NCBI RefSeq assembly: GCF_001306055.1
Contig: NZ_LGHJ01000020.1
Location: forward strand, 60,001-92,000
Source: Bellilinea caldifistulae
GTDB lineage: Bacteria > Chloroflexota > Anaerolineae > Anaerolineales > Anaerolineaceae
DNA: 32,000 nucleotides
Direction: 5' to 3'
Position 1 is the stretch's first letter. Each line of letters begins with the position of its first letter. Of the stretch, positions 2,356 to 18,295 are shown piece by piece. The notes under the pieces are model-generated. The model was not told the DNA's origin, ran no database searches, and worked only from the letters and a program-made list of their open reading frames with translations. The translations under genes were made by a program, and so were the position numbers.

Positions 2356-4449
2356 TCAGCCACTCACAACGATGCGGGCATCCACCACCTGAAGTCCATG
2401 TTCAAACACCAGAGCAGGATTCAGATCAATCTCAAGAATATCCTCGTTTTCCACCATCAGGTGGGAGAGCCGCAACATGGCATCAATCAGGGCAAAGCGG
2501 TCAGCAGGTGGTTCGCCGCGTACCCCTTGTAAAAGACGGGCACCACGTAACTCATCCAGCATTTCTTCGATGTCCGTGCGGCTAAGAGGAGCAAGGCGGA
2601 TGGAAACATCCTGCAGGGCTTCGGCGTAAATGCCACCCAACCCCAACACCACCACCGGCCCAAAAGAAGGATCTCGTTTAGCGCCAAGAATCATCTCTTT
2701 GCCTTTACTTAACATCTTTTGAATGAGAAATTCCTCTGCCGGCTTGAGGTTCAGTTGGGTAAAACGATGTTCCATTTCCAGCATGGCCGAAGCCAGCATT
2801 ACTTGATCGGGGATGTTCAACACAACGCCGCCGACATCGGTTTTGTGAGTTACCTGTTCAGAGATGGCCTTGAGTACAATGGGATAGCCGATACGGGCGG
2901 CCGCCTCAACTGCCTGTGAGAGATTGAAAACTTTGGCCCAGGGCGCAACCGCTATGCCGTAAGCCTCGCATATCTGCATCGCCTGATCCAGCGGGAGCAA
3001 GGATGAGGTTTTGCGGCTGATTAACCAGCGGGTTTTGCTGGGAGCATCTGTGGGTATAGGAACAGCGGGCGGCTGATGTTGAGCGGTCTGAAGTTGTGTT
3101 GCTTTTTGATAATGGTCGCGAGAAGCAGCCAATGCCTGGACAGCCTCATAAACTTCACTGAAAACCGGAAAGCCCAGATTCCTCTCTAAGTAGTTGACTT
3201 CATCCACTTCTGTAAAGTAACACAGGGCAATCGGTATCTGATAGTGCTGGCTCAGGGCTTTGATTTTTTCGGCAACGGCGCGAGCGGTGGGAATGGTTTC
3301 GCGCCGGTAATTGAAAATGAGCAAAATGGCATCAGCCTGTTTGAGTTTAATGGCTTCTTCGATGATTACCGGATAGGCATCGAAATTAAAAACCGTTCCC
3401 AAATCCAGCGGGTTCATCCGCTCAATAACATTTACGCGGAAAAAGGGCTTTGCCACCTCGATTAATGCGTCGCTAAAGGGAGGCAGTTCAAAACCGAACT
3501 GGCTGGCACAATCTACCGCAATGATGGCATGACCACCCGAACGGGAGAACACCGCTAAACGGTTGCCGCGCACAGGTGGCAGCGTAAACCCCTTACTGTA
3601 AATCATCATTTCCCGGAAAGTCATTGCACGGGTTATGCCAAATTGCCGGAATGCCGCATTGACGATACCCTCGTCGTTTGCCAGTGCAGCCGTGTGAGAT
3701 TGGGCAATTTGAGCGCTGGCCTGACTGGTATTGGATTTATAGACGATCACCGGTTTTGGAGATTGGGCGGCCAGTTCCACCAGCTGACGGCCTTCCACAA
3801 TGCTTTCCAGGTAAAGCAAAATAATCCGGGTGGCAGCATCCTGAATGAAGTAGCGGAGATAATCACTTTCTTTGAGGTCTATTTTGTTGCCTACACTGAC
3901 CGATTTAGCAATTCCTAAACCGGCAGCAGCCAGCGAGTCAATACAGGTCAGAACAACGCCGCCGCTTTGTGAAACCAGCGAGACATTGCCGTGAGGAACC
4001 TCTTCCGGAGCCGTTGGGACAAAGATGGTACAGATACCGCTGTCCGTACAGATGATGCCGATGCAATTCGGCCCAACAAGACGCATCCCCCATTTGTGGG
4101 CGATCCGGCATAGTTCTTCTTCCAGTATTGCGCCCTCTTCGGAAAATTCGCTGAAGCCAGCCGATTCGATGACCGCGTAACGCACACCGGCCGCCCCTAA
4201 CTCATCCAGCAAACCCGGCACAGTAGCCGCCGGGGTAAGAATGACCGCCAGATCAATGTTGGGAGGTAATTGATTGACAGATGAATAGATTGGATGCTCC
4301 AGAGTCCGCCCCTCGGTGCGTCCCAGTAGATATAACTGGCCACTGTAACCAAATTCGATCAGGTTGCTGGCTATATGACGAGCGAGATTATCCGGCTTAT
4401 CCGAAACCCCCGCCACGACAATACTGCGCGGATAAAATATTGCATCCAT
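2356..4449 (-). CDS. ADP-forming (NDP-forming) acetyl/acyl-CoA synthetase, fused alpha-beta type
   Basis: CoA-binding N-terminus (PRSIVVAGVSDKP), GPNCIGII, SQSGG and a SHTAALAND phosphohistidine-loop-like segment, then a C-terminal ATP-grasp half (IVLKAISEQVTHKTDVGGVVLNI). ATG 4449 has GAGG 6 nt upstream and is preferred over the track start at 4530. Confidence 0.8.
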   Translation of the reverse strand: MDAIFYPRSIVVAGVSDKPDNLARHIASNLIEFGYSGQLYLLGRTEGRTLEHPIYSSVNQLPPNIDLAVILTPAATVPGLLDELGAAGVRYAVIESAGFSEFSEEGAILEEELCRIAHKWGMRLVGPNCIGIICTDSGICTIFVPTAPEEVPHGNVSLVSQSGGVVLTCIDSLAAAGLGIAKSVSVGNKIDLKESDYLRYFIQDAATRIILLYLESIVEGRQLVELAAQSPKPVIVYKSNTSQASAQIAQSHTAALANDEGIVNAAFRQFGITRAMTFREMMIYSKGFTLPPVRGNRLAVFSRSGGHAIIAVDCASQFGFELPPFSDALIEVAKPFFRVNVIERMNPLDLGTVFNFDAYPVIIEEAIKLKQADAILLIFNYRRETIPTARAVAEKIKALSQHYQIPIALCYFTEVDEVNYLERNLGFPVFSEVYEAVQALAASRDHYQKATQLQTAQHQPPAVPIPTDAPSKTRWLISRKTSSLLPLDQAMQICEAYGIAVAPWAKVFNLSQAVEAAARIGYPIVLKAISEQVTHKTDVGGVVLNIPDQVMLASAMLEMEHRFTQLNLKPAEEFLIQKMLSKGKEMILGAKRDPSFGPVVVLGLGGIYAEALQDVSIRLAPLSRTDIEEMLDELRGARLLQGVRGEPPADRFALIDAMLRLSHLMVENEDILEIDLNPALVFEHGLQVVDARIVVSG

Positions 4450-4579
4450 GATCTGCCTCGCAAAGCTTGCCAGAGTTTGGGATTTGAACGTGCATTTGAT
4501 GTTTCTATTATGGCACAACCCTGCTTTCAATAACTCTCGGAGAAGGCTGATTTCAAGAGAAACACCATCCTGAAAAGTC

Positions 4580-5080
4580 TTAATCCCTTTCGAGAGGATT
4601 TCCGTTCAGTTTTGCAGTGACCGTAATGGGGGTGTTGTTTGTCAGGGCAACTTCGGTAAAACACATCTGACGGGCAAGGCGAACCAGTTCCCGGATGGTG
4701 GACAGCGGTTCATCGGATTCGATTTGGATCTCGACCTCAAACCCGTCACAAAATGCCATGGCATCGCCTCGTAAAACTGAGCCTTCTTCCCGAAAATGAG
4801 CGGTCACTTTGACTATTTCCTTACGAAGGTTCAATCTCTTTTTGGACGCAACCTGCGTCACATGGGAGATCAGTCAGAGTGCCATTCCGGATACAAAGTA
4901 GGTGAGAGGGGTTGGGGCAGTGCCTTCCCCACCGGGGATGTAGTTGCCTTCGTCGCTGATGAAGGCATACATACGACCGGTTTCCGGTTGTCCGGCAATG
5001 ACCTGTTTACGCCACTTTTCGATTGAGGTGGCAGTTGCTTCAACCACAATCTCGCGCCGGTGATTTTTTGGGTTTTCCAT
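4580..5080 (-). CDS. OsmC/Ohr-family peroxiredoxin-like protein with in-frame TGA (4874-4876) predicted to encode selenocysteine
   Basis: Track ORFs 4874..5080 and 4580..4861 are in the same frame, separated by one TGA. The joined product has the OsmC blocks ...GGEGTAPTPLTYFVSGMAL-U-LISHV... and ...LARQMCFTEVAL.... ATG 5080 is preceded by GAGGGA. A hairpin follows the TGA (next feature). Confidence 0.7.
4832..4873 (-). promoter_or_regulatory. Putative bacterial SECIS stem-loop directly downstream of the in-frame UGA
   Basis: RNA sequence is CUGAUCUC CCAUGU GACGCA GGU UGCGUC CAAAAA GAGAUUG. There is a 6-bp upper helix with a GGU apical loop, a possible unpaired U at +17, and a 5-7 bp lower helix (AUCUC/GAGAU plus two G-U pairs). 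Confidence 0.55.
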
Positions 5081-5257
5081 AATGTCCCTCGATCTTTTTG
5101 TTTACTTTATTCAAACTATACCACAATATTCATCTTCAAAAATTTATCTCTTTTTTATTAATTTTTTATCCTCTTCTTATGGTCAAAACAAACCAATAGG
5201 GGCATGATGGATTGCGGTTGTCATACAATCACCACTTCATTTCAACAGAGAGGAAAT

Positions 5258-7609
5258 ATGAAATTTAGAGACCGTTTGATCTTGATCATTTCGTTGATTC
5301 TGGTGTTTGTGATGGGGGTCAATACGGCATGGATGGTCAGCCGGGCGCGACAATCCTTATTGGATCAGACACGTTCTAATGCTGTTGCACTGGCAGAAAT
5401 GTTCGCCCATTCGGTAGATTTTGCCAACCGCATTCCGGGTGAAGTTGACCGGATTGTAGGCCGGCAAATGGTCACTCAGGCAAGAATCTCGGCCTACTTG
5501 ATTGACGCAGCCCTCAAAGCAGGCATGAGCGAGGCTCAAATTGAAGAGATGCTGCGCGCAATTGTTGATTCAACCGATCTCAAAGAGTTCTGGATCACCG
5601 ACGATACCGGCACAGTGGTTTATTCCAACATTGATGTACCGTTCGCTTTCAGCCCAGATCCAAACGAACAACCTCAAGCCTATATTTTTTACCAATTGCT
5701 GCAACAAAAGAACGGCGAGGTGATTCAATCGGCGCAGTTGCGGGAATTGGATTCAAAACTCTACAAATATGTTGGGGTTTCCGGGGTGGATAGCCCGCGT
5801 ATTGTGCAGGTTGGAGTTGAAGCAACCTATCTGGATGAGGTCACCCGCAGCATGAACCTGCAAACGCTGGTTGATAAAACGGTTTCGGTCAAGGATGTGA
5901 ATGCTGTGGCTGTAAAAATGGCTGATCAGCCGGTTGTTTTCAGCGCCCGTCAGGGTTTCTCCCAAACCGATTTGCTGGGTACGGATTGGGAGGAGAGTGT
6001 TGAAGAAGCGTTAAGCGGAGGTGAGGTTGTTGTAGACGAAATTTCCAATGCGCTGCGGGTGGTTTATCCGGTTAAAACCAGCGCCGGAGAACAGGTAACC
6101 ATCACAGTCTTCATGAGCACTGCCGGCGTCGCCCAGCAAGTTCGCCAGACCCTGACCACAGCCGTAATTGCGACTTTGATTCTTCTGGCAATCAGCCTTG
6201 GGGCAGCCCTGTTCATTGCCAATACCATCACCCGCCCCTTGGGAGTGATTGAGAAAGCCGCGGATCAACTGGCGGATGGTGACCTGTCCTTTTCGGATGC
6301 CCAGCAGAATCAATTGGAAGCCATCTATCACCGCAAGGATGAATTGGGTACGGTTGGGCGCGCTTTCCAGCGGTTGATCGGCTACTTTACCGAGATGATC
6401 GAGGTGGCCAATCGGCTGGCAGCGGGAGATTTGAGCCTCTCAGTCAAACCGCGCTCCGAGCGGGATGGGCTGGGGCAGGCATTTTCAACCATGATTTCCA
6501 GCTTGAAATCTACCGTATTCCGCCTTGCTCAGAGTTCGGATGAGCTGGACAAAGCCTCGGCTGAACTGGCTAACTTTGCCGAACAGGTGCGTCTGGCTTC
6601 GGAGCAGATTGCTCAAACCATGCAGCAAATTGCGATGGGCTCCTCTCAACAAGCCGAGTCGGTGCAGCGCACGGTCAGCTCAGTACACCAGATGGCGAAT
6701 GCCATTGACGGGGTTGCCAAAGGCGCTCAGGAGCAGGCTCGAGCCGTTACTTCTGCCTCGCAGGTTTCCAACCAGATGGGCGAGAAGATGCAAAGCGTTG
6801 CCGAGACGGCTACGGAAGGCGCGCAAAATGCGATCAGCGCTGCCGAAGTGGCACAGAACAGCGCTGAGACGCTCAACCAGATGATTAATGGGATGCGCCT
6901 GATTAAGGAAAAAGTTGACCTTTCCATGGAGCGGGTCAAAGATATGGGCGAGCGTTCCCAACAAATCAGTGTGATTTTGGAGACGATTGAGGATATTGCC
7001 AATCAAACCAACTTACTGGCGCTCAACGCAGCCATCGAGGCAGCCCGGGCAGGCGAGCACGGTAAAGGTTTTGCGGTTGTTGCGGATGAGGTTCGTAAAC
7101 TGGCAGAGCGTTCGGCTCAGGCGACCCGTCAGATTGGTGATCTTGTTTCAGAAATTCAAAAGACCGTTCATGAAGCCGTGGAAGCAATGAGCCTGAGCGC
7201 CAAAGAGGTGGAAAATGGGGTGGCTCAGACTCATCAATCCAGTGAGGCGTTGATGCGCATTCTGGAAGTGATTCAGCAGGTGCGCCAGCAAGCCGAGGGG
7301 ATTGCCTCAGCCGTCAAGCAGATTTCGGGCTTCTCGAATGAATTGATTGATGTGATGGATTCAGTCTCATCGGTGGTGGAGGAGAACATCGCCTCGACCG
7401 AAGAAATGTCGGCCAGTTCCACGGAGGTTTCGGAAGCGATGGAAATGATTGCCAGCATCAATGAGGAAACCAACGCTTCCATCGAGGAAATCAGCGCGGC
7501 GGCCCGCGAAATGAGCCAGCAGGTGCAGGATGTAACCTCTGCGGCGGTTTCACTTTCCCAAATGGCGGCTTCGCTGCGCGGACTGGTGGGGCAATTCAAG
7601 GTTTCGTAA
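5258..7609 (+). CDS. Methyl-accepting chemotaxis protein (two TM helices, large extracytoplasmic domain, tandem HAMP, MCP signalling domain)
   Basis: TM1 [15 protein letters not shown]; TM2 [20 protein letters not shown]; HAMP-like [18 protein letters not shown] and [13 protein letters not shown]; hairpin tip [37 protein letters not shown] 5258 is preceded by AGAGGAAAT. Confidence 0.9.
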
Positions 7610-7688: not shown

Positions 7689-8894
7689 TTATTTTTCAGT
7701 GATTTCCACACCGTCTTTGAAGACATGCAAGGGAGCTTCGTGATTCCAGATGGCTTCCCAGACTGAGTTGGCGTTTAAGATGACCAAATCGGCATTGCAG
7801 CCAACTTTCAGGCCGTAATTGGGGATATTCAGTGCCAGAGCGGCATTGGTAGTGATCAGGTCGTAGAGAATTTCCAGTTCTTCGCGGCTGGTCATCCACA
7901 TCAGGTGGGCGGCAAGGAAGGCCACTTCCAGCATGTTATTGCGCCCAAAGGGATAGTAGGCATCGGCAATGTCATCCTGCCCAAGGGCAATGCGTACACC
8001 GGCTTTGTAGAGCGACTTAACGCGGGCGTACAACGGGCCGGTCTGCGGGTCGGAAACCACCCCAATTTGAGCGCGTTTGAGCAGGTATTCGATCTTTCGA
8101 TAATACGGTTCTGGGTAAAGTGCCATGGCACGGGCATGTTGAGCCGTGACACGCCCCTCCCAGCCTTCTTTTATGGTCTTGACTGCCAGCATTTCCAGCG
8201 TGCGCAGGGTGGGGTCGCCGGCATCGTCAATCAGCATGGAAATGGGTTTGTTGTATTTCTTTGCCAGGGCAAACATGCGGTCAATGTGCTCCTGGGCATC
8301 GGCGTCGGTGTATTCGATCCAGGGAATGCCGCCAACCACATCCGCACCCAATTTGAGGGCTTCTTCAACATAATCTTCTGCGCCGGGGTCGCGCACTACA
8401 CCGTCCTGCGGAAAAGCGACAACCTGAATATCTACCTTGCCTTTGAATTCCTCCCGGGCGCGGATGAGGGCTTTGACGCCTTCCAGCCGGGCTTTGGTAT
8501 CGGTATCGGCAAAGGCGCGAATATGGGTGTTGCCAAAGCGAATGGCCAGTTTGACCGCTTTGCGGACGTTTTCGATAATCCACGATTCGTCGTACTTTTC
8601 TTTGACGCGGGCAGCCAGTTCGATGGCGGTCATTGCCCCACCCATCGCCTCGCCTGTGTAGGCCCCCAATGCTTCATCATCCATCATCGAAAGAGTGTAA
8701 ACCTTGCAAAGGTGCAGGTGCCCATTTACAAATGATTCGGTCACCAGATGGCCGTCTGCGTCCACAACCCGCTTTGCATCCCCCTCAATTTTTGGAGAAA
8801 TGGCGGCAATTTTGCCATCCTTGATTCCGATTTGGACTAACTCATTTCCTGAAAAGCGGGTTTTGGCATTCTTGATCAGGTAATCCAGTGTCAT
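7689..8894 (-). CDS. Metal-dependent amidohydrolase, cytosine deaminase / AtzC-like
   Basis: N-terminal beta-sandwich (IKDGKIAAI), then an HxH metal motif FVNGHLHLCK. The 401-aa layout is colinear with CodA-type amidohydrolases. GGAGGG lies 4 nt upstream of ATG 8894. Confidence 0.75.
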   Translation of the reverse strand: MTLDYLIKNAKTRFSGNELVQIGIKDGKIAAISPKIEGDAKRVVDADGHLVTESFVNGHLHLCKVYTLSMMDDEALGAYTGEAMGGAMTAIELAARVKEKYDESWIIENVRKAVKLAIRFGNTHIRAFADTDTKARLEGVKALIRAREEFKGKVDIQVVAFPQDGVVRDPGAEDYVEEALKLGADVVGGIPWIEYTDADAQEHIDRMFALAKKYNKPISMLIDDAGDPTLRTLEMLAVKTIKEGWEGRVTAQHARAMALYPEPYYRKIEYLLKRAQIGVVSDPQTGPLYARVKSLYKAGVRIALGQDDIADAYYPFGRNNMLEVAFLAAHLMWMTSREELEILYDLITTNAALALNIPNYGLKVGCNADLVILNANSVWEAIWNHEAPLHVFKDGVEITEK

Positions 8895-8914
8895 TGTTCC
8901 CTCCGTAGAGTAAT

Positions 8915-8953
8915 GAATAAAATTATCCTGCCCGCAGGTTGTACGGGCAGGAT
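8915..8953 (-). terminator. Stem-loop with a U-rich tail after the 2Fe-2S subunit gene (partial terminator or attenuator candidate)
   Basis: atcctgcccg (8925-8934) pairs with cgggcaggat (8944-8953). On the minus strand the hairpin is followed by AAUUUUAUU. Confidence 0.4.
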
Positions 8954-8961
8954 TTTGAATT

Positions 8962-9450
8962 TCAGGCCTTTTCGGTCATCCGTTCGCGGATCAGTTGTTG
9001 GGCAATCAACGCTCCGTCGCGAATGGGTTCGTAGCCAGTGCAGCGGCACAGGTGTTTATTGAGGGCATTCGATAGTTCGGTTTCGCTGGCGTCCGGTTTG
9101 CTTTCCAGCAGGGCGTGGAGCTCCATCACAATACCGGGGGTGCAGAAACCGCACTGAACGGCTCCTGATTCGGCAATGGCTTTTTGGATCGGGTGCAATT
9201 CCATACCTTTTGCCAGCCCTTCGATGGTCAAAATATTCGCCCCCTGCATTTTGCTGGCCGGGGTATTACAGGATTTAACGGCTTTTCCATTCATGACAAT
9301 TACACATGTGCCGCAGGTAGCGTTATCGCAGCCGCGTTTTGTGCCGGTCAGATCCAGCACGTCGCGGATTACATCAATAACCATCATTTCTTCGTCAATT
9401 TCGACAGAGCGGTATTCGCCATTGATGGTGAAGGAAATTTTCTCGGTCAT
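8962..9450 (-). CDS. Molybdenum hydroxylase small subunit, [2Fe-2S]x2 (xanthine dehydrogenase / aldehyde oxidoreductase / CoxS family)
   Basis: CDNATCGTCV (plant-type cluster), QCGFCTPGIVM and LCRCTGYEPI (second cluster). ATG 9450 has AAGGAG 10 nt upstream and lies 1 nt after the large-subunit stop (9452-9454). Confidence 0.9.
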   Translation of the reverse strand: MTEKISFTINGEYRSVEIDEEMMVIDVIRDVLDLTGTKRGCDNATCGTCVIVMNGKAVKSCNTPASKMQGANILTIEGLAKGMELHPIQKAIAESGAVQCGFCTPGIVMELHALLESKPDASETELSNALNKHLCRCTGYEPIRDGALIAQQLIRERMTEKA

Positions 9451-9451
9451 T

Positions 9452-11785
9452 TCAGGCATACTCCTTTTCCGTTCGGGCTTCGAGGGCTTGTTTGATTTTT
9501 TCGGGCGTGACGGGAATTTCGTAGAAATCCACCCCGATGGCATCATAGATGGCGTTCAGGATGGCAGGTGGCACACCGATAACCGGATGTTCTCCGATGC
9601 CGCGAGCGCCAAAAGCCCCAATCGGGTCGGGTGTTTCGATGAATTCGATGGTTTGCTGGGGAGCTTCTTTATAGGTTGGAATGTGGTACTGGAAGTAATG
9701 TGGGTTAAGGATGCGGCCTTCTTCGTCGAACTTCACTTCTTCATACAAGGCTGCGCCCAACCCCATTAAGACTCCGCCTAACACGGTGCCGCGAATTTGA
9801 ATCGGGTTAATGACCTGTCCGACATCGAAGACGGATGCAAAGTGATCTACGTAGATTCTACCGGTTTTCTTCTCAATGCGGATTTCGGCAGCTTGAGCGC
9901 CAAAGGTATAAGTCACCCCCAGATTCCCCTGACCGTTTTGATCCGGGTTGGAATAACGTGGCAGGCGGGCATCGGCTACCGATTGAGCCAGATCGCCAAT
10001 GGTGATGCCATTGTCCGTGATGTAGCCGCGCGCTAATTGGGTTACCGGAACGCGAATGGAGGGGTCGCTGCGCAGGTAGACGTACTCACCGTCGTATTCA
10101 AGATAATCTTCATCGGTGCGAAGTACCTGAGCAGCTGTTTTCTTCAAGCCTTGAATCAGTTTCTCGGCGGCGCGAACGATGGCGCGTCCCCCTTGCATGG
10201 TGAACATGGAACCGATGGTTTGCCATTCGTAGGGGGAGAACTGGGTGTCAATTTCGTTGTAGCAGCGCACTTTTTCGGGTGGTATCTTGAGGGCTTCGGC
10301 GGCAATCTGACGAACGACGGTGCGCAAGCCCTGGCCCACTTCGGCGCCGCCCATATTGACCGACACGCTGCCGTCAATGTTCATCTTCATGTAGCAGCCC
10401 TTGGTGGAGAAGGGCGCGCCTTTGGGTGATTTCATCAATGCAGCAAAACCCCGACCATAATAAAATTGATCATCTTCTTGCTTCTCTTTGGGCTTTCCAA
10501 AGACAATTTGTTGAACCCGCTCGGCACATGCCTGCATGTCACCGTTTGATTTCCACATCCGCTCACCGAGCGAATTGGTGCTGCCTTCGCGCAGATAATT
10601 CTTGCGGCGTAATTCAAATGGATCCATATTCAGCTTGCGTGCCAGCATGTCCATCATCCGCTCGGTGGCAAACTGCGGTTCGGGATGCCCATAACCACGG
10701 AATGCGCCAACCGGCGGCGTGTTGGTATAGACGGTGTAGCCGGTTAGATCGCAATGTTCAAATTCATACGGGCCGGTGGAGTTGTGGGTTGCGGCGATGG
10801 TCACATTGACGGCAGTGTCGGAGTATGCTCCGCCCGAATGATATACGGTGGTTTTAAGGGCCACCAGTTTGCCATCGCGCTTTGCCCCGATTTTCATGAC
10901 CGTGCGAATGCCGTGAGCAAGTAATGTGCTGGTGATGTCTTCCTTGCGGCTGGCAACCCACTTGACAGGCCGCCCGGGGACGAAACTGGCGATCCAGGCA
11001 ATGGTCTGCTCGACGGTGATATCCGATTTGTAGCCAAAGCAGCCGCCAATATCGGGAATGTGAACGCGAACATCCGAGACGGGCACACCGTAGGAATGGG
11101 CAATGTCATCGCGGATGATGAAGGGGCAAATCGAGGATGACCAGATTTCGATGGTGCGGTCTTCCTTGAACCAGACAATTGAACCGTGCGGTTCGAGTGC
11201 GGCGCAGGAACCAAACGGATAATTGAACTCGCCCTCGATGATGACGTCGGCTTCCTCGAAACCTTCCTCGCCGCGGCCTTTTTTCAGATGATAGACGTTG
11301 GCGATGTTGGTGCCGGGCTTTGGGTTGAGGGTCGGAAGATGCCAGTATTCGCCCAATTCTTCGTGTATGAGAACGGCATCCTCGCTCATTGCCTGGCGGG
11401 CATCAATGTAAACCGGCAGAGGGTCGTATTCCACTTTAATCTTGTCCAACGCCGCGTAGGCGTGGCGGGGCGTATCGGCGATGACGGCAGCAACCGGTTC
11501 TCCAATGTGCCGGACTTTGTCAATCGCCATGGGTACCAGGTCGCGGATGTTATCTCCGTAGCGGTAGGTGCAGCCCTTGCCGGTGACGACTTTGACCACA
11601 CCGGGACATTTTTCGGCTTCACTGGTATCAATGGAGAGGATGCGGGCATGGGCGTATTTGGGCCGCAGGATGGCGGCGTGTAACATGCCCGGCAGACGGA
11701 TGTCATCCAAAAAGACGGCTTTACCGGTAACTTTATTGATGGCATCCGGTCTGATGTAACTTTTACCTAAATACTTGTAAGCCAT
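9452..11785 (-). CDS. Molybdopterin-binding large subunit of a xanthine dehydrogenase / aldehyde oxidase family hydroxylase
   Basis: 777 aa. It has an a/b-hammerhead-type N-terminus (AVFLDDIRLPGMLHAAILRPKYAHARI) and GAFRGYGHPEPQFATERMMD, and is colinear with the family throughout. ATG 11785 is preceded by AAAGGAG with a 6-nt spacer; the track start 11791 is a TTG. Confidence 0.9.
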   Translation of the reverse strand: MAYKYLGKSYIRPDAINKVTGKAVFLDDIRLPGMLHAAILRPKYAHARILSIDTSEAEKCPGVVKVVTGKGCTYRYGDNIRDLVPMAIDKVRHIGEPVAAVIADTPRHAYAALDKIKVEYDPLPVYIDARQAMSEDAVLIHEELGEYWHLPTLNPKPGTNIANVYHLKKGRGEEGFEEADVIIEGEFNYPFGSCAALEPHGSIVWFKEDRTIEIWSSSICPFIIRDDIAHSYGVPVSDVRVHIPDIGGCFGYKSDITVEQTIAWIASFVPGRPVKWVASRKEDITSTLLAHGIRTVMKIGAKRDGKLVALKTTVYHSGGAYSDTAVNVTIAATHNSTGPYEFEHCDLTGYTVYTNTPPVGAFRGYGHPEPQFATERMMDMLARKLNMDPFELRRKNYLREGSTNSLGERMWKSNGDMQACAERVQQIVFGKPKEKQEDDQFYYGRGFAALMKSPKGAPFSTKGCYMKMNIDGSVSVNMGGAEVGQGLRTVVRQIAAEALKIPPEKVRCYNEIDTQFSPYEWQTIGSMFTMQGGRAIVRAAEKLIQGLKKTAAQVLRTDEDYLEYDGEYVYLRSDPSIRVPVTQLARGYITDNGITIGDLAQSVADARLPRYSNPDQNGQGNLGVTYTFGAQAAEIRIEKKTGRIYVDHFASVFDVGQVINPIQIRGTVLGGVLMGLGAALYEEVKFDEEGRILNPHYFQYHIPTYKEAPQQTIEFIETPDPIGAFGARGIGEHPVIGVPPAILNAIYDAIGVDFYEIPVTPEKIKQALEARTEKEYA

Positions 11786-11815
11786 TTTCAACTCCTTTCT
11801 TGAATTACTTGTGTA

Positions 11816-12736
11816 CTATTCTCTGCGGTAGGGTTTCAACAAGGCTGCCGGGTAAGAAGCGTTCCGCCCGGCAATGACCAGGGCAATGATCGTAACCACA
11901 TACGGCAGAGCCAAAAAGGTTTCATAAGGCACGGGCAACTGCAAACCCATTGCCTGTAAGCGCAATTGCAAAGCAAAGGTGCCGCCAAAGATCAAACCGC
12001 CCAGCATCACGCGAACAGGGTGCCAGTTGCCGAAGATCACGATGGCAATGGCAACCCAACCGCGCCCGGAGATGATCCCGTGAGTGAAGGCGCCCAATTG
12101 GAAAAGTGAGAGAAATGCACCCCCAGCCGCCATCAGACCGCCGCCGATTGCCAGGGCAGCATAACGCACTGCCGGTACACTGATTCCGGCGGCATCCACC
12201 GCCTCCGGATTTTCGCCAACCGAGCGGATTTTCAAACCAAAATTGGTGCGGTACAGAATCCACCATGCCAGCGGCACAATGACCAGAAAGGTGAGGTAGG
12301 TCAACCAGTATTGGGAAAGGATCGGCCCGAGGATGGGGTTGTTTTGCAAAATATTGAGCGTTTGGAAGGAAGGGATGGAAGGGGGAGTAGAACGGCCGCC
12401 ATAGAAAAGACGGAAGGTGAAAAGCGTTAAGCCGGTATGCAAGAGGGTGATACCCAGACCGGAAACGTGCTGGTTGACCCCAAGGGTGACGGTGAAGAAA
12501 CCCATCAACAAACCAAACACGATTCCCGATAAGATGGCCATTAATAAACCCAGCCAGAGTGAACCGCTTTTATCGGCGATTAGAAAGCCTACAAAGGCGC
12601 CAAAATACATAATGCCTTCAATGCCGAGGTTCAGAATACCGGCACGTTCGCTATAAGTTTCTCCAATGGCAGCCAGGACAATTGGGGTTGAAACACGGAA
12701 GGTGGCTGCGATTAAGTTGACCAGGAATACTTCCAT
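11816..12736 (-). CDS. ABC transporter permease (BMP / nucleoside-type, second permease)
   Basis: Polytopic hydrophobic protein. Its ATG overlaps the stop of the upstream permease (TAATG at 12734-12738). It sits in an operon with a duplicated ATPase and a BMP-family binding protein. Confidence 0.85.
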   Translation of the reverse strand: MEVFLVNLIAATFRVSTPIVLAAIGETYSERAGILNLGIEGIMYFGAFVGFLIADKSGSLWLGLLMAILSGIVFGLLMGFFTVTLGVNQHVSGLGITLLHTGLTLFTFRLFYGGRSTPPSIPSFQTLNILQNNPILGPILSQYWLTYLTFLVIVPLAWWILYRTNFGLKIRSVGENPEAVDAAGISVPAVRYAALAIGGGLMAAGGAFLSLFQLGAFTHGIISGRGWVAIAIVIFGNWHPVRVMLGGLIFGGTFALQLRLQAMGLQLPVPYETFLALPYVVTIIALVIAGRNASYPAALLKPYRRE

Positions 12737-13806
12737 TATGCCCTCCGAACGATGCGGTAACGTTGAAGCAGGTACATTCCCAGGGCAACCAGTAACATGA
12801 CTGCCTGAGTGACCTCGCCCAGGTAAACCGGTACGCCCATTGCCCGGCTAACCGTTTGAGCGCCGGTATCAATCAACCCAAAGAATAGAGAGGCAACGAA
12901 CACACCTATGGCATTCAGGCTGCCGAGCGTGGCAATGATCACCCCGGTGTAGCCATAACCGGCGGAAAGATCGCCGATCAAGTGGAATTGAATACCAGCT
13001 ACTTCGCTTACCCCGGCAATGCCGGCAATACCGCCGCTGATTAATGCGGCAATCAGTGTGGTGCGTCCAACGTTGATGCCTGCAAATTGTGCGGCAGGTT
13101 TTCCCAGTCCAACGGCGCGCATTTTCAGACCAAAGGAGGTCTGGGTCAGGATAAACCATAAAACTGCAATCCCTACCAGGGCTACAATGAACCCAAAGTG
13201 CAGGCGCGAACGGGGAATCAGCTTGAAAAACATGGTATTCTCAGCAATTTCGGGGGATTGCGGCCAACCAGAGGTTGGGTCGCGCCAGGGGCCGTTTAGA
13301 ATGGCGCTGACAATATAGGCCATGATGGAATTCATCAAAAGGGTGGTGACTACCTCATCCACGGCCAGCCGGACTTTGAGCAGCGCAGGAATCAGCGCCC
13401 AGGCCATACCTGCCAAAAATCCGCCAATTATCATCAAAGGGATGGCAATGGCGGCCGGTACCCCTGCCAGAACAATGCCAAGCCATGCAGCCGCAATCGC
13501 CCCGGCGTACAGCTGGCCTTCGGCGCCGATGTTGTAATAACCGGTGGCAAAAGCAAATGTGACGGCTACGCCGGTCAGCATCAAAGGAGTGGACTTGACC
13601 AGCACCTCCAGGAAAGATACCTGACTGGAGAGAGGGGAGATCAGGAAATAATAGTAAGCCTGAAAGGGATTTGCCCGAGTGGAGAGAATCAACCCCGCAG
13701 TAATAAGGAATGTGATCAAAAGAATCAGCACCGGAATGAGCGGGCGCATCCAAATAGGGGGTGTGTCGGTTTTGACCAGTTGATAAGGGAACCGTTTGGC
13801 TTCCAT
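12736..13806 (-). CDS. ABC transporter permease (BMP / nucleoside-type, first permease)
   Basis: Polytopic hydrophobic protein. ATG 13806 (MEAKRF...) with AAGGAG 10 nt upstream is preferred over the GTG at 13830. Confidence 0.8.
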   Translation of the reverse strand: MEAKRFPYQLVKTDTPPIWMRPLIPVLILLITFLITAGLILSTRANPFQAYYYFLISPLSSQVSFLEVLVKSTPLMLTGVAVTFAFATGYYNIGAEGQLYAGAIAAAWLGIVLAGVPAAIAIPLMIIGGFLAGMAWALIPALLKVRLAVDEVVTTLLMNSIMAYIVSAILNGPWRDPTSGWPQSPEIAENTMFFKLIPRSRLHFGFIVALVGIAVLWFILTQTSFGLKMRAVGLGKPAAQFAGINVGRTTLIAALISGGIAGIAGVSEVAGIQFHLIGDLSAGYGYTGVIIATLGSLNAIGVFVASLFFGLIDTGAQTVSRAMGVPVYLGEVTQAVMLLVALGMYLLQRYRIVRRA

Positions 13807-13810
13807 GGAA

Positions 13811-15313
13811 TCAATGCTCCTTGACGGCACCCGACATCAGCAGCCCGAGTCGTTCGGGTGTGGCTTCTGCGGCGGGTAAAGTACCAACAATTTCGCCCTC
13901 GTAAATGACGGCAATCCGATCCGAGAGCGCCAGAATTTCATCCAGGTCTTCTGAGATCAGCAGAATGGCGGCGCCACGCTGGCGCTGTTCCAGCAATTGC
14001 TGGCGAACATAATCCGTTGCGCCAATATCCAAACCACGGGTCGGTTGAGGAGCAATGATCACTTTGGGCTGCCGGGCCAGTACGCGTGCCAGCAGCACCT
14101 TTTGCATGTTCCCGCCGGAAAGGGTGCGGGTAATATCATTTGGTTTGGCTTTGATCTGAAATTTCTGGATTAACTCACTGGCATATTGACGGATGGCTTT
14201 ATGGTCTAAAACACCATTGCGGGTGAATTCATCCAGATGTTCCAGAACGAGATTGTCGGTAACGCTCAGGTGAACGACCATTCCCTCATGGCGGTCTTCG
14301 GGTATACGTCCGAGTCCGGATTGGGTGAGTTCGGAGGGTGATTTGCCAGTGACATCCCGGCCATCAACGCGGATGCTCCCGGCGGTTGGTTGACGGACAC
14401 CGCAAATCGTTTCAGCCAGTTCCTTCTGCCCGTTTCCTCCAACGCCGGCAATACCTAAAATTTCGCCCTCAAAAACGGTGAGCGAGATGTTCTTAAGGAC
14501 GGGTAAGTTTTTATCGTCGTTGGCGCACAGGTTGATCAGTTCGAGCATGGGTTTTTGTGCAGCCGTTTCGGAAGTTGCTTTGCTGCGCGTTACGCCGAAA
14601 GTTTCTCTTCCGACCATCATCGCAGCCAGTTCTTTTTGGGTGACATCGGCGGTATTGACCGTACCAACGACTTTACCGTCTCGCAGGACGGTGACTCGAT
14701 CGGTGATTTGGGTTACTTCATGTAATTTGTGGCTGATAAAGATGACCGATAAACCTTCCTGTTTGAGACGATTCAACGTTTCAAACAGCGCCTCTACTTC
14801 CTGGGGAATCAGCACTGCGGTTGGTTCGTCAAGAATGAGAATTTCAGCATTGCGGTAAAGGGCTTTAAGAATTTCGACCCGCTGGCGCTGTCCAACCGAC
14901 AGATGCCGGACGATTGCTTTGGGATTGATTTCTAATCCAAACCGACGGGCGGCTTCGGTAACGCTCTCTTCTATTTGATTCTGATCAAGAACGAACGAGT
15001 TTTGATAACCCAGCACAACATTTTCTGCAACCGTCAGCGGCGGCACAAGAGCAAAATGCTGGGTCACCATTCCAATTCCGAGATGGATGGCATCTTTGGG
15101 TGAGTGGATGACGACAGGCTGTTCCTTGACTTTGATGACACCCGAATCGGGATGGTACAACCCATAGAGGATGCGCATCAATGTGGTTTTTCCTGCCCCG
15201 TTTTCACCCAGCAGAGCGTGAACTTCTCCTTTTTGCAATTCAAAATTCACGTGGTCATTGGCGATGAGATCGCCAAAGCGCTTGGTGATGGATTGCATTT
15301 CGACGATAAACAT
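13811..15313 (-). CDS. ABC transporter ATP-binding protein with two fused ATPase domains
   Basis: Domain 1 has GENGAGKTT, LSVGQRQRVEI and ILILDEPT. Domain 2 has GVGGNGQKE and LSGGNMQKVLL. ATG 15313 (MFIVEMQSITKRFG) is preceded by GGAGAGG. Confidence 0.9.
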   Translation of the reverse strand: MFIVEMQSITKRFGDLIANDHVNFELQKGEVHALLGENGAGKTTLMRILYGLYHPDSGVIKVKEQPVVIHSPKDAIHLGIGMVTQHFALVPPLTVAENVVLGYQNSFVLDQNQIEESVTEAARRFGLEINPKAIVRHLSVGQRQRVEILKALYRNAEILILDEPTAVLIPQEVEALFETLNRLKQEGLSVIFISHKLHEVTQITDRVTVLRDGKVVGTVNTADVTQKELAAMMVGRETFGVTRSKATSETAAQKPMLELINLCANDDKNLPVLKNISLTVFEGEILGIAGVGGNGQKELAETICGVRQPTAGSIRVDGRDVTGKSPSELTQSGLGRIPEDRHEGMVVHLSVTDNLVLEHLDEFTRNGVLDHKAIRQYASELIQKFQIKAKPNDITRTLSGGNMQKVLLARVLARQPKVIIAPQPTRGLDIGATDYVRQQLLEQRQRGAAILLISEDLDEILALSDRIAVIYEGEIVGTLPAAEATPERLGLLMSGAVKEH

Positions 15314-15439
15314 GACCTCTCCTGAGGGGCTTAGGTGGGATAACCCGTAGCGGCGCTTGTTTATCAAACAGGATGGTTTTGATCGCTTCTACGGGTGGAC
15401 TGGTATTCCTGACTTGTTTCAACCATTATGGGTGTTGAG

Positions 15440-15473
15440 GTGCCTGTGCGGCTTGCTTTGGCCGCACAGGCAC
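15440..15473 (-). other. Intercistronic 13-bp stem-loop between the binding-protein and ATPase genes
   Basis: gtgcctgtgcggc (15440-15452) pairs with gccgcacaggcac (15461-15473). No U-tract follows on the minus strand, so it looks like an mRNA-stabilising or processing hairpin rather than a full terminator. Confidence 0.5.
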
Positions 15474-15486
15474 ACTCCAGTTTCAC

Positions 15487-16506
15487 CTAGTTGGTAGGTG
15501 CCGGGGGTTCTTCCTTGATGTCAACGCGGAAGAGACCATTGCGGATTTCTTCATCGCGTTGCTTGACCAGCGAAAGGATGTTCTCCGGAATCTTGGATTC
15601 CATGCCGTGGAATGGAGCAAGGTACGCACCACCTTTGGCAACCATGCTGAAGTCCTTGAGATCCTGAGCGGTGAAGGTGCCGGCTTCAATCTGCTTGATC
15701 ACGTATTCAACCGTGGGGGTCATGTTCCAGACTGGCCCGGTCAGGACGTGATCCGGTCCGAGTTCGTACTGGTCGCTCATGTTCCCAAAAGCCAGCAGAC
15801 CTTTTTCAACCGCCGCATCAATCACGCCGAAGCGTTCGGCAAACAGCACATCGGCACCGGCATCCACCTGAGCCAGAGCAGCCTCTTTGGCAGCGGCGGG
15901 ATCAAACCACGAGTTGATGAAGGTAACCAGCACTTTGGCATCCGGGTTGACCTCTTTGACGCCGTCAATGAACGCGTTGACAATGCGGTTGACTTCGGGA
16001 ACGGGATAGCCACCAACCACACCGATCACATTCGTCTTGGTTACACCACCGGCGATCATGCCGCACAGGTAAGCCGGTTCGTGAATCCAGTTATCGAATA
16101 CCGCCACATTGGGTTCCGCCGGGCCGAGGCCGGAACCAAAGACAAAAGCAATTTCCGGGTAATCCTTGGCTACCCGACGGACGGCTTCTTCATTGCCAAA
16201 AGCATCGCCAAAGATGGCGGCTGGTTTTTGTTTTTCGGCTACTTCGCGAAGAACGCGTTCCATATCGCCGGCGTAACCGATATCATCAGTATACTCGTAG
16301 CGGATTTTGCCTTCATCCGCAACTTTTTGGAGCGCCTGATGAATTACACCATCCCAGGGTTCTTCGATGGGGGTGGCAAAGGCGCCGAAGAATAACGGCG
16401 CTTGAGTCTCACCGGTTTGGGGCGCCTGGGTCTGTGCAGCCGGAGCGCATTGTGCGGTAAGCACCACCAGCAAAACAGCGATCAAGACAGTCTTAAAGGT
16501 TTTCAT
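15487..16506 (-). CDS. BMP-family (PnrA/Med-like) ABC substrate-binding protein, secreted
   Basis: Signal peptide MKTFKTVLIAVLLVVLTAQC. BMP-type blocks GVVGGYPVPEVNRIVNAFIDGVKEVNPDAKV...INSWFDPAAAKEAALAQVDAGADVLFAE. Confidence 0.9.
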   Translation of the reverse strand: MKTFKTVLIAVLLVVLTAQCAPAAQTQAPQTGETQAPLFFGAFATPIEEPWDGVIHQALQKVADEGKIRYEYTDDIGYAGDMERVLREVAEKQKPAAIFGDAFGNEEAVRRVAKDYPEIAFVFGSGLGPAEPNVAVFDNWIHEPAYLCGMIAGGVTKTNVIGVVGGYPVPEVNRIVNAFIDGVKEVNPDAKVLVTFINSWFDPAAAKEAALAQVDAGADVLFAERFGVIDAAVEKGLLAFGNMSDQYELGPDHVLTGPVWNMTPTVEYVIKQIEAGTFTAQDLKDFSMVAKGGAYLAPFHGMESKIPENILSLVKQRDEEIRNGLFRVDIKEEPPAPTN

Positions 16507-16877: not shown

Positions 16878-18188
16878 ATGTCATCCGAGAATGAATTAAG
16901 CGAACGTGAAAAAGAGATTTTACGGCTTGTGGCTACTGGCGCCAGCAATAAAGAAATTGCTCAGGTGCTGTACATCAGTCCTAACACGGTCAAGGTTCAT
17001 CTCCGTAATATATTTGCAAAAATCGGTGTTGTTTCCCGCACCGAGGCTACCCTATATGCCATCAAAATCGGGCTGATTCCCGAAGCCGTGCGCGAAGAAA
17101 TCCACACCAGTCAGGCGGTTTCCGAGGGCAGCCTTGTAGTAACCGCCGAAGCACCACCAGCCGTCTCCCGCTCTTCACCGATCAAAGGTAGAGGGTGGGT
17201 GCTGTTTGTGGTTGTCCTCTTGATCGGGATTGGTTTCTTTCGGATGAGGAGTGTCAATCCAGGGGGAGTAGCCCAGGTCAATAGCGAGCAGCGGTGGAGC
17301 CAACTGGCTGATTTACCGGAAGGCGTTGGGGGAGGTGTTACGGAGAGGTACGAGGGGTATCTGTATCTGTTTGGGGGCGAAAAGGACGGAAAACTCAGCG
17401 GGAATGTATTTGCCTATAACATCACCCAAAATCAATGGGAGAGAAAGTCCCCAAAACCCACCATCGTTAGCGGTGTACAGGCGGGTGTGCTCGGGGAAAA
17501 AATTTATCTCCCCGGTGGAGAACTGGCAGATGATACCCTTACCACTCAGGTTGAAGTGTATGATCCGCGTAATGATCTTTGGGAAACCACCACACCGTTA
17601 CCTGTTCGGCTGACAGGTTACGGGCTGGCGGTTTTTGAGGGGCGATTGTATTTGTTTGGCGGTTGGGATGGTAATTCGTATCGGGATGAGGTGTGGATTT
17701 TCGAACCGGATGCTAAAGAATGGATTCTGCAACAAAAAATGCCCTTTGCCCGCGCATTTTTGGCAACGGCGGTGCTTGGAAACAAAATTTATCTGTTGGG
17801 GGGCGAAACGATGGTCGGTGTGACGGATGAATGTCTGGCTTTCTACCCCAATCGAGAGAAGGATGACCCGACCGCCTGGGAGCAAAAGCCTTCCCTCCCA
17901 AGGGGGAGAAAGAACCTGCGCGCGACTGTTCTGGCTGACGGCGTGTACGTCGCCGGTGGGGTCAATCAAATTGATCAGCCAATCACCGACATCCTTCGGT
18001 TTAATGAATCAAGCGGGGTTTGGGAGGTTTTGGAACCACCTCCATTGCTGGTCTCGGCAGATACAGCGTTGGCTGCCAGCCAAACACGCCTCCATTTTCT
18101 TGGAGGAACGATTGGCATGCGGACAGTTCCCTATCATCAGGCTTATCAAGCTCTCTATACGGTGGTGCTTCCGGCCGTCAGCCGATAA
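16878..18188 (+). CDS. Membrane-anchored LuxR/GerE-type HTH regulator with a C-terminal six-blade Kelch-repeat domain
   Basis: HTH SEREKEILRLVATGASNKEIAQVLYISPNTVKVHLRNIFAKIGV. One TM helix WVLFVVVLLIGIGFF (about nt 17196-17240). Six repeats of the type xxxYLFGG....W (YLYLFGGE, IYLPGGE, LYLFGGWDG, IYLLGGE, VYVAGGV, LHFLGGT). Confidence 0.85.
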   Translation: MSSENELSEREKEILRLVATGASNKEIAQVLYISPNTVKVHLRNIFAKIGVVSRTEATLYAIKIGLIPEAVREEIHTSQAVSEGSLVVTAEAPPAVSRSSPIKGRGWVLFVVVLLIGIGFFRMRSVNPGGVAQVNSEQRWSQLADLPEGVGGGVTERYEGYLYLFGGEKDGKLSGNVFAYNITQNQWERKSPKPTIVSGVQAGVLGEKIYLPGGELADDTLTTQVEVYDPRNDLWETTTPLPVRLTGYGLAVFEGRLYLFGGWDGNSYRDEVWIFEPDAKEWILQQKMPFARAFLATAVLGNKIYLLGGETMVGVTDECLAFYPNREKDDPTAWEQKPSLPRGRKNLRATVLADGVYVAGGVNQIDQPITDILRFNESSGVWEVLEPPPLLVSADTALAASQTRLHFLGGTIGMRTVPYHQAYQALYTVVLPAVSR

Positions 18189-18214: not shown

Positions 18215-18223
18215 CGGGTGAGG

Positions 18224-18295
18224 AGCGGGAGACGGGACTCGAACCCGCGAATGTCAGCTTGGAAGGCTGATGCCTTACCACTTGGCGACTCCCGC
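18224..18295 (-). tRNA. tRNA-Gly (anticodon UCC)
   Basis: Hand-folded cloverleaf. Acceptor GCGGGAG/CTCCCGC; anticodon stem TCAGC/GCTGA with loop CTTCCAA (UCC); 5-nt variable loop; T-arm GCGGG-TTCGAGT-CCCGT; discriminator U. CCA is not encoded. Confidence 0.85.

Follow-up and report, generated by a model that had tools for sequence, protein, structure and literature searches.

The stretch of DNA analysed here, called the window throughout, comprises 32,000 nucleotides of Bellilinea caldifistulae (contig NZ_LGHJ01000020.1, positions 60,001 to 92,000), and the gene in question lies on its minus strand at 4580–5080, where an OsmC-related selenoprotein, with an in-frame TGA as the codon for selenocysteine (Sec), is predicted. 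From the ATG at 5080 to the TAA that ends at 4580, the minus strand holds a single frame of 166 codons, whose sole interruption is the TGA at 4876–4874. Open reading frame (ORF) calling divides this frame into one ORF of 68 amino acids (4874..5080, minus strand), terminated by the TGA, and another of 93 amino acids (4580..4861, minus strand), for which a GTG is taken as the start. Both ORFs are in frame with each other (5080 − 4861 = 219 = 73 × 3), and they are separated by nothing other than the TGA and the sense codons CTG ATC TCC CAT, within the context GGA ATG GCA CTC TGA CTG ATC TCC CAT GTG ACG CAG GTT GCG TCC. A preliminary description of this DNA had joined the two OsmC-like ORFs into one gene of 166 residues, and this agrees with the sequence, since the read-through product amounts to 68 + 1 + 4 + 93 = 166 residues before the terminator TAA at 4582–4580.

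The complete coding sequence (4580..5080, minus strand; 166 codons plus the TAA) is predicted to yield the OsmC-related selenoprotein MENPKNH...SGMAL-U-LISHVTQVASKK...RQMCFTEVAL...NPLERD, in which U is Sec. A Shine–Dalgarno-like GAGGG, read from the sequence, is present at 5086..5090 on the minus strand, 5 nt upstream of the ATG at 5080–5078, and the GTG at 4859..4861, at which ORF calling began a second gene, corresponds to the internal Val74. The predicted Sec codon (4874..4876, minus strand) specifies residue 69, at the position of the peroxidatic cysteine as judged from the ortholog column and from the alignment with Ohr proteins. Two further cysteines, both encoded by TGT on the minus strand, are of interest: Cys140 (4661..4663; RQM-C-FTE), the predicted resolving cysteine, and Cys111 (4748..4750; AF-C-DGFE), a third and near-invariant one that is Cys in 79 of 81 genes. 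A scan of 4300–5350 for promoters and terminators gave none on the strand of this gene. In addition, two ORFs overlap the gene in other frames (4796–5026, plus strand, 76 amino acids; 4870–5049, minus strand, 59 amino acids), and their apparent conservation is a shadow of the real gene, which made them false candidates in the scan for Sec/Cys pairs described below.

The TGA column and the downstream hairpin in related genomes

When a single genome of each GTDB species was scanned, 80 related loci were retrieved, which together with the window gene make up the 81 genes counted here; the records are titled Anaerolineae or other Chloroflexota, except for one (L049) titled Syntrophomonadaceae, and the best relative is 87% identical. 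The codon aligned with the TGA is always the same one, and it reads TGA in 72 of the 81 genes and TGC or TGT in the other nine, so that 71 of the 80 related genomes carry TGA in the same alignment column as the window, a recurrence well beyond what would arise by chance. The nine genomic Cys forms constitute one tight clade, with 81–95% mutual identity and at most 73% identity to any Sec form, while the Sec forms diverge among themselves down to 47% identity. The motif that starts at the Sec column is UxxS in 71 of the 72 Sec forms and UxxT in the remaining one.

Downstream of the TGA, at a distance of 14–31 nt and inside the coding sequence, a hairpin of the Sec insertion sequence (SECIS) type is found at 4843..4862 on the minus strand (UGUGACGCA-GGU-UGCGUCCA), which corresponds to nucleotides 15–34 when the U of UGA is numbered 1. 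Its core of 5 bp is formed by 4855–4859 paired with 4845–4849 (helix 18–22/28–32), the loop A-GGU-U at 4850–4854 contains a GGU triloop, U17 (4860) is bulged, and the minimum free energy of nucleotides 15–34 is −8.5 kcal/mol in the window. Conservation was computed on the 62 distinct sequences of TGA forms, in which nucleotides 20–26 (C GCAGGU) and 28–30 (GCG) are invariant. As a result, three synonymous sites, namely NCG (Ser/Thr), CAG (Gln), and GCG (Ala), do not vary, a constraint confined to the TGA forms. The helix 18–22/28–32 pairs in 62/62 sequences (100% of cells), and it is also obtained independently with RNAalifold. Moreover, the two outer pairs of the core vary (GC/UA/AU and UA/UG/AU) with 14 double-sided changes, the observed score is reached by none of 500 shuffles, and sliding the 3′ partner of the core by 1–3 columns lowers pairing to 23–77%. 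Of the two pairs beneath the bulge, one persists in 50/62 sequences and the other in 40/62. Covarying positions alter the encoded residues in step (Thr...Ser, Ser...Thr, Ser...Ala, Ser...Ile, and Ser...Lys), which is the expected outcome of an RNA structure constraining a coding sequence.

None of the nine genomic Cys forms has this hairpin; they read ACC CAG GTG GCC at the same site and show 20% pairing there, with a mean fold energy of −1.7 kcal/mol versus −8.0 kcal/mol in the TGA forms. Compared with the SECIS of the E. coli fdhF type, which has the loop residues G23/U24, the hairpin is alike in its start about 11–15 nt after the UGA, its location in the coding region, its small apical loop, in which GGU is invariant, and its bulged U on the 5′ side, but the conserved stem is shorter (5–8 bp) and the G/U of the loop are shifted by about 1 nt relative to G23/U24. 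In the published description of bacterial SECIS elements (PMC1088965), a stem-loop follows the UGA directly and its apical loop is small and contains G; the position of the hairpin and its small GGU loop fit this description. A covarying structure is thus present in the stretch after the TGA to which the preliminary description had pointed. Two other candidates in this region were discarded: a lower stem AUCUC/GAGAU, which appears when the window is folded as a single sequence, has no RNAalifold support across relatives, and a snoRNA match obtained at a permissive Rfam threshold (E 4.3) is attributed to chance.

Alternative readings of the TGA

The protein database contains about 54 full-length homologues of roughly 170 amino acids, together with many C-terminal fragments of about 92 amino acids and N-terminal fragments ending in ...SGMAL, from Chloroflexi, Anaerolineae, and Bellilinea sources, in line with the earlier expectation that automated callers would split such a gene; these fragments run to dozens. 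All 15 of the full-length homologues that were aligned have Cys at the TGA column, in the context AL-C-L[IL]SH, as do the nine genomic Cys loci, and this upholds the placement of the TGA in the column of the first redox cysteine. Two database homologues, P0019 and P0031, have W at this column and, together with the fact that the Sec machinery was not directly seen in the loci searched, they could be taken to favour read-through without selenium, either by near-cognate decoding (Trp, Cys, or Arg) stimulated by the hairpin or because UGA is generally a sense codon in the organism. However, the DNA of P0019 (L082:970-1473) has TGA at the Sec column, so its Trp is an artefact of a gene caller that used a code with TGA as Trp, and both proteins are hidden Sec forms, the DNA having been read for P0019. 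TGA is also the ordinary terminator of 8 of the 22 large ORFs of the window and of 26 of the 81 genes of the OsmC-related family, and the genetic code is therefore not reassigned. In addition, the column alternates with Cys codons only, a Trp at the site of the peroxidatic cysteine would be inactive, and the small G-containing loop of the hairpin is that of bacterial SECIS elements (PMC1088965). Read-through without selenium is thus considered improbable, even though it is the alternative that fares best.

Another reading would be that of two polypeptides, a 68-residue piece ending at the TGA and a 93-residue piece initiated at the GTG at 4861, which would assemble non-covalently. The start assigned by the ORF caller, 5 codons past the TGA, is in its favour, but no Shine–Dalgarno-like motif was seen upstream of this GTG on direct reading of the sequence, and the start codon is not kept in orthologues, as the aligned codon is a non-start (CTG, GTT, ATT, ATA, and others) in 25 of the 72 TGA forms. 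Furthermore, the Cys homologues are single chains, a split at this place would cut the active-site helix in the structural model of the homologue P0001, and both the conserved hairpin and the replacement of Cys by a stop codon would be left unexplained. Two separate chains are accordingly very improbable.

An error of sequencing or assembly, with TGC or TGT as the true codon of the window, is scarcely likely either. TGA is one base away from both Cys codons, and one related sequence of low coverage does combine TGC with the hairpin. Nevertheless, TGA occupies this site in 71 independent assemblies, and the closest relatives with TGA (L001–L003) have exactly the hairpin sequence of the window. 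The low-coverage sequence is L081:494-1006 (ENA ERZ4756918; contig coverage about 2.7), which encodes P0001 and has TGC at the Sec column with an intact SECIS-type hairpin, UUUCGCAGGUGGCGAAA, still downstream; this is either a 'fossil SECIS' left by a recent change from Sec to Cys or a base error in the contig.

Both halves of the gene are under purifying selection, as the ratio of nonsynonymous to synonymous substitution rates (dN/dS, Nei–Gojobori) comes to 0.05 over the 26 codons that precede the TGA and to 0.13 over the 44 that follow it, both values being far below 1, with synonymous sites (dS) near saturation. Downstream of the TGA the frame is open for 94–103 codons in all 72 TGA forms, and upstream there are at least 66 open codons in every one except a form that ends at a contig edge. 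The least probable alternative is a pseudogene, in which a nonsense mutation would have left the two ORFs as decaying remnants of an OsmC-family gene: a single TGA does break the frame and public annotation handles the relatives as fragments, but the comparative data effectively refute it, with the same TGA codon in 72 of 81 genes whose proteins diverge to 47% identity, no further stops or frameshifts in any TGA form, low dN/dS on both sides, and a stop exactly on the column of the catalytic Cys. The orthologues do not carry assorted lesions, and the signature is that of Sec and not of decay, as had been proposed from the window alone.

Fold, putative function, and predicted selenium dependence

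For family searches, Cys was put at the TGA position of the joined protein. Residues 51–154 match the Pfam OsmC family PF02566 (model positions 1–99 of 100) with E 7.5e-13 and 49.2 bits, the gathering score being 27.5, and the joined protein reaches 127.3 bits, where the curated cut-off is 95, with NCBIfam NF041052.1 'OsmC_like_Se', OsmC-related (seleno)protein, over model positions 5–144 of 144, so the OsmC/Ohr-fold identity assigned earlier is sustained. The Cys homologue P0004 scores 125.5 bits with the same model; at model level, no difference between NF041052.1 and the window protein was detected, and the name of the model implies a family with both Sec and Cys forms. When the family profile was compared with PDB sequences, the best match was 3cje (E 6.9e-18, residues 9–160), followed by a series of Ohr structures. 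An AlphaFold model of P0001, a Cys homologue 71% identical to the window protein, has a predicted local distance difference test score (pLDDT) of 86.9 and a predicted template modelling score (pTM) of 0.82, and in it the first Cys lies in the early part of a long helix, the second where two helices join. In a fold search with this model, the 50 best PDB matches listed were all of the OsmC/Ohr family, the top one being again 3cje (E 1.2e-10), with a template modelling score (TM-score) of 0.70 when normalised to the query and 0.79 when normalised to the target.

Profile alignment to solved Ohr proteins sets the TGA column against the Cys of the Ohr motif GYAACF, and Cys140 (RQMCF) against the Cys of HxVCPYS, which are the peroxidatic Cys60/61 and the resolving Cys, respectively. 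Sec/Cys69 and Cys140 are invariant in 81/81 genes, which confirms that the partner cysteine is retained, and these residues occupy the two conserved redox positions of the OsmC/Ohr superfamily, in the long first helix and in the second helix. The equivalence with sequence blocks of E. coli OsmC given in the preliminary description could not be reproduced, as hhalign with an approximate OsmC query gave 8% probability and an alignment out of register; the equivalence does hold for the Ohr structures and 3cje. Moreover, comparison with PDB sequences up to E ≤ 10 did not bring up the E. coli OsmC structures 1nye and 1qwi, which were matched at the fold level only, at ranks 24–36. OsmC proper is more distant from the family than Ohr and 3cje are. 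The joined protein also falls short of the cut-offs of the Ohr subfamily models, with 18.7 bits against 88.85 for TIGR03561 and 30 bits against 240 for NF052637.

With respect to Ohr (PDB 1n2f, 1zb8, 3eer, and 6mjn), the fold is common and Sec69 and Cys140 fall in the columns of the peroxidatic and resolving Cys, but the family of the window is extended by about 25 residues at the N terminus and has the extra conserved Cys111, Leu instead of the Glu of NPEQLF, and Sec instead of Cys. The closest solved structure, 3cje, is the OsmC-like hydroperoxide resistance protein Jann_2040 of Jannaschia sp. CCS1, obtained by structural genomics; it resembles the window protein in length class (167 amino acids), in the N-terminal extension, and in both Cys positions, and differs in having Cys instead of Sec and in lacking the Cys111 segment (AFCDGFE), which is deleted in it.

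OsmC-like selenoproteins were described in 2005 by Zhang, Fomenko and Gladyshev in the Sargasso Sea, as members of COG1765/YhfA with the motif UxxT (PMC1088965), and the family is listed in reviews from 2022 and 2026 (PMC9312934, PMC13188914). Those proteins and the present ones have in common the PF02566 fold, a Sec that takes the position of the first redox Cys, a SECIS that follows the UGA directly, and Cys homologues that are widespread, whereas, going by the published description, the former have UxxT and come from marine plankton and the latter have UxxS (71/72) and anaerobic Anaerolineae hosts. The gene is, hence, a further member of an established selenoprotein family with a curated model, and the result is an annotation correction rather than a discovery.

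It is highly probable that 5080–4580 on the minus strand is a single gene for an OsmC/Ohr-fold protein with Sec, encoded by the UGA at 4876–4874, at the position of the active-site nucleophile. Insertion of Sec at this UGA, which comparative sequence data strongly suggest, is given the same high probability. The downstream hairpin (nucleotides 15–34, with its GGU apical loop and bulged U) would act as a bacterial SECIS and recruit SelB-GTP and Sec-tRNA(Sec) to the ribosome, and the UGA would then be decoded as Sec without termination. The protein would most likely be a selenol/thiol-dependent reductase of the Ohr/OsmC type, and a redox role with residues 69 and 140 at its centre is, by homology, quite probable. 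Sec69, situated close to where the long helix begins, could attack an oxidised substrate, for which an organic hydroperoxide seems most plausible; the resulting selenenic acid would be resolved by Cys140 to form a selenenylsulfide, which a cellular dithiol could in turn reduce. Hydroperoxide reduction specifically has about an even chance of being the actual activity, and it is an extrapolation because the Ohr Glu is missing and the N-terminal extension and the conserved Cys111 are additional. In this scheme the insertion of Sec, the reducing partner, and the substrate are inferred, not observed directly.

Several observations weigh against the interpretation as a selenoprotein or against the function proposed for it. 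Neither the 32 kb window nor 1.34 Mb of related loci yielded selA, selB, selD, or tRNA-Sec in a search that consisted of ARAGORN on the window and 60 loci, Rfam on the window (only ordinary tRNAs were detected), and tblastn with SelA and SelD queries plus motif scans (SGDK..GGPQ, GxG[C/U]GCK) over the 1.34 Mb; this search is uninformative because the Sec genes are not linked to the OsmC-related locus. The only tRNA of the window is a tRNA-Gly (UCC) at 18222–18295 on the minus strand. No second selenoprotein gene was seen in the loci by a Sec/Cys-pair scan with tblastn of 4,380 in-frame TGA candidates, which recovered the OsmC-related family alone, together with artefacts from alternate frames and gene junctions. 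The hairpin matches no Rfam family in a search that covers the families already in Rfam. Regarding function, profile alignment to 3eer and 6mjn puts a Leu (TPLTYF) where the Ohr motif NPEQLF has its catalytic Glu, and synteny around the gene exists only in the close Bellilinea relatives L001–L006 and gives no functional clue.

Indirect support from the wider lineage comes from published work. Single-cell genomes of Anaerolineales contain Sec-containing formate dehydrogenases and SelB, the elongation factor specific to Sec, which is also encoded by Anaerolinea thermophila (PMC4959059), and selenoproteins and tRNA-Sec have been reported in Chloroflexi (PMC1794560; PMC5389517). Moreover, the selected retention of the TGA and the hairpin in 72 genomes would be hard to explain without Sec machinery. 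The prediction that Sec is inserted at residue 69 implies that the Bellilinea-like organism and most of its relatives run this machinery and need selenium, which bears on the dosing of trace elements in anaerobic digesters, where such bacteria abound.

As regards annotation, the two 'OsmC family' fragments are to be merged into one selenoprotein gene, and the same error recurs in about 89% (71/80) of the species-level genomes of related Anaerolineae that were examined and in dozens of entries in databases, some of which were translated with Trp at the site. The 62 distinct SECIS variants, the one Cys-reverted clade devoid of the hairpin, and the one Cys form that bears it make up an unusually clean natural dataset, which could help to train predictors of bacterial SECIS elements and selenoproteins. 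A more speculative and rather doubtful proposal is that the Anaerolineae clade (UxxS; U69/C111/C140; no Ohr-type Glu) is an orthologous group distinct from the marine COG1765/UxxT proteins, with a substrate or redox partner unlike those of Ohr/OsmC, and represents the signature and possibly the most widespread selenoprotein of Anaerolineaceae. If this were true, the annotation of metagenome-assembled genomes would systematically hide a lineage-wide selenium dependence in anaerobic digesters and sediments.

Neighbouring genes

Directly downstream of the selenoprotein gene and on the same strand, positions 2356–4530 hold an ADP-forming acetyl-CoA synthetase-like gene (CoA_binding_2, Succ_CoA_lig, and ATP-grasp_5 domains), for which the TTG at 4530 is listed as the start, probably too far upstream; MDAIFYPRSIVVAGVS begins with an ATG at about 4449. 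In L001–L006, the syntenic neighbours of the selenoprotein gene are this ADP-forming acetyl-CoA synthetase downstream and a chemoreceptor upstream. A 769-amino-acid ORF on the plus strand (29–2338) matches family B DNA polymerase (PF00136, E 1.1e-25) and adjoins the acetyl-CoA synthetase gene in L001, L003, and L004 too.

The minus strand at 7689–16506 carries genes for an amidohydrolase, a 2Fe-2S subunit, a molybdopterin-binding subunit resembling xanthine dehydrogenase, two BPD_transp_2 permeases, an ABC ATPase, and a binding protein of the Bmp/PnrA type. This cluster looks like a locus for the uptake and catabolism of purines or nucleosides, and it is syntenic in L001–L006. Finally, the gene at 16878–18188 on the plus strand encodes a protein with a LuxR/GerE helix-turn-helix at its N terminus and a Kelch-repeat beta-propeller, an unusual architecture for a regulator.

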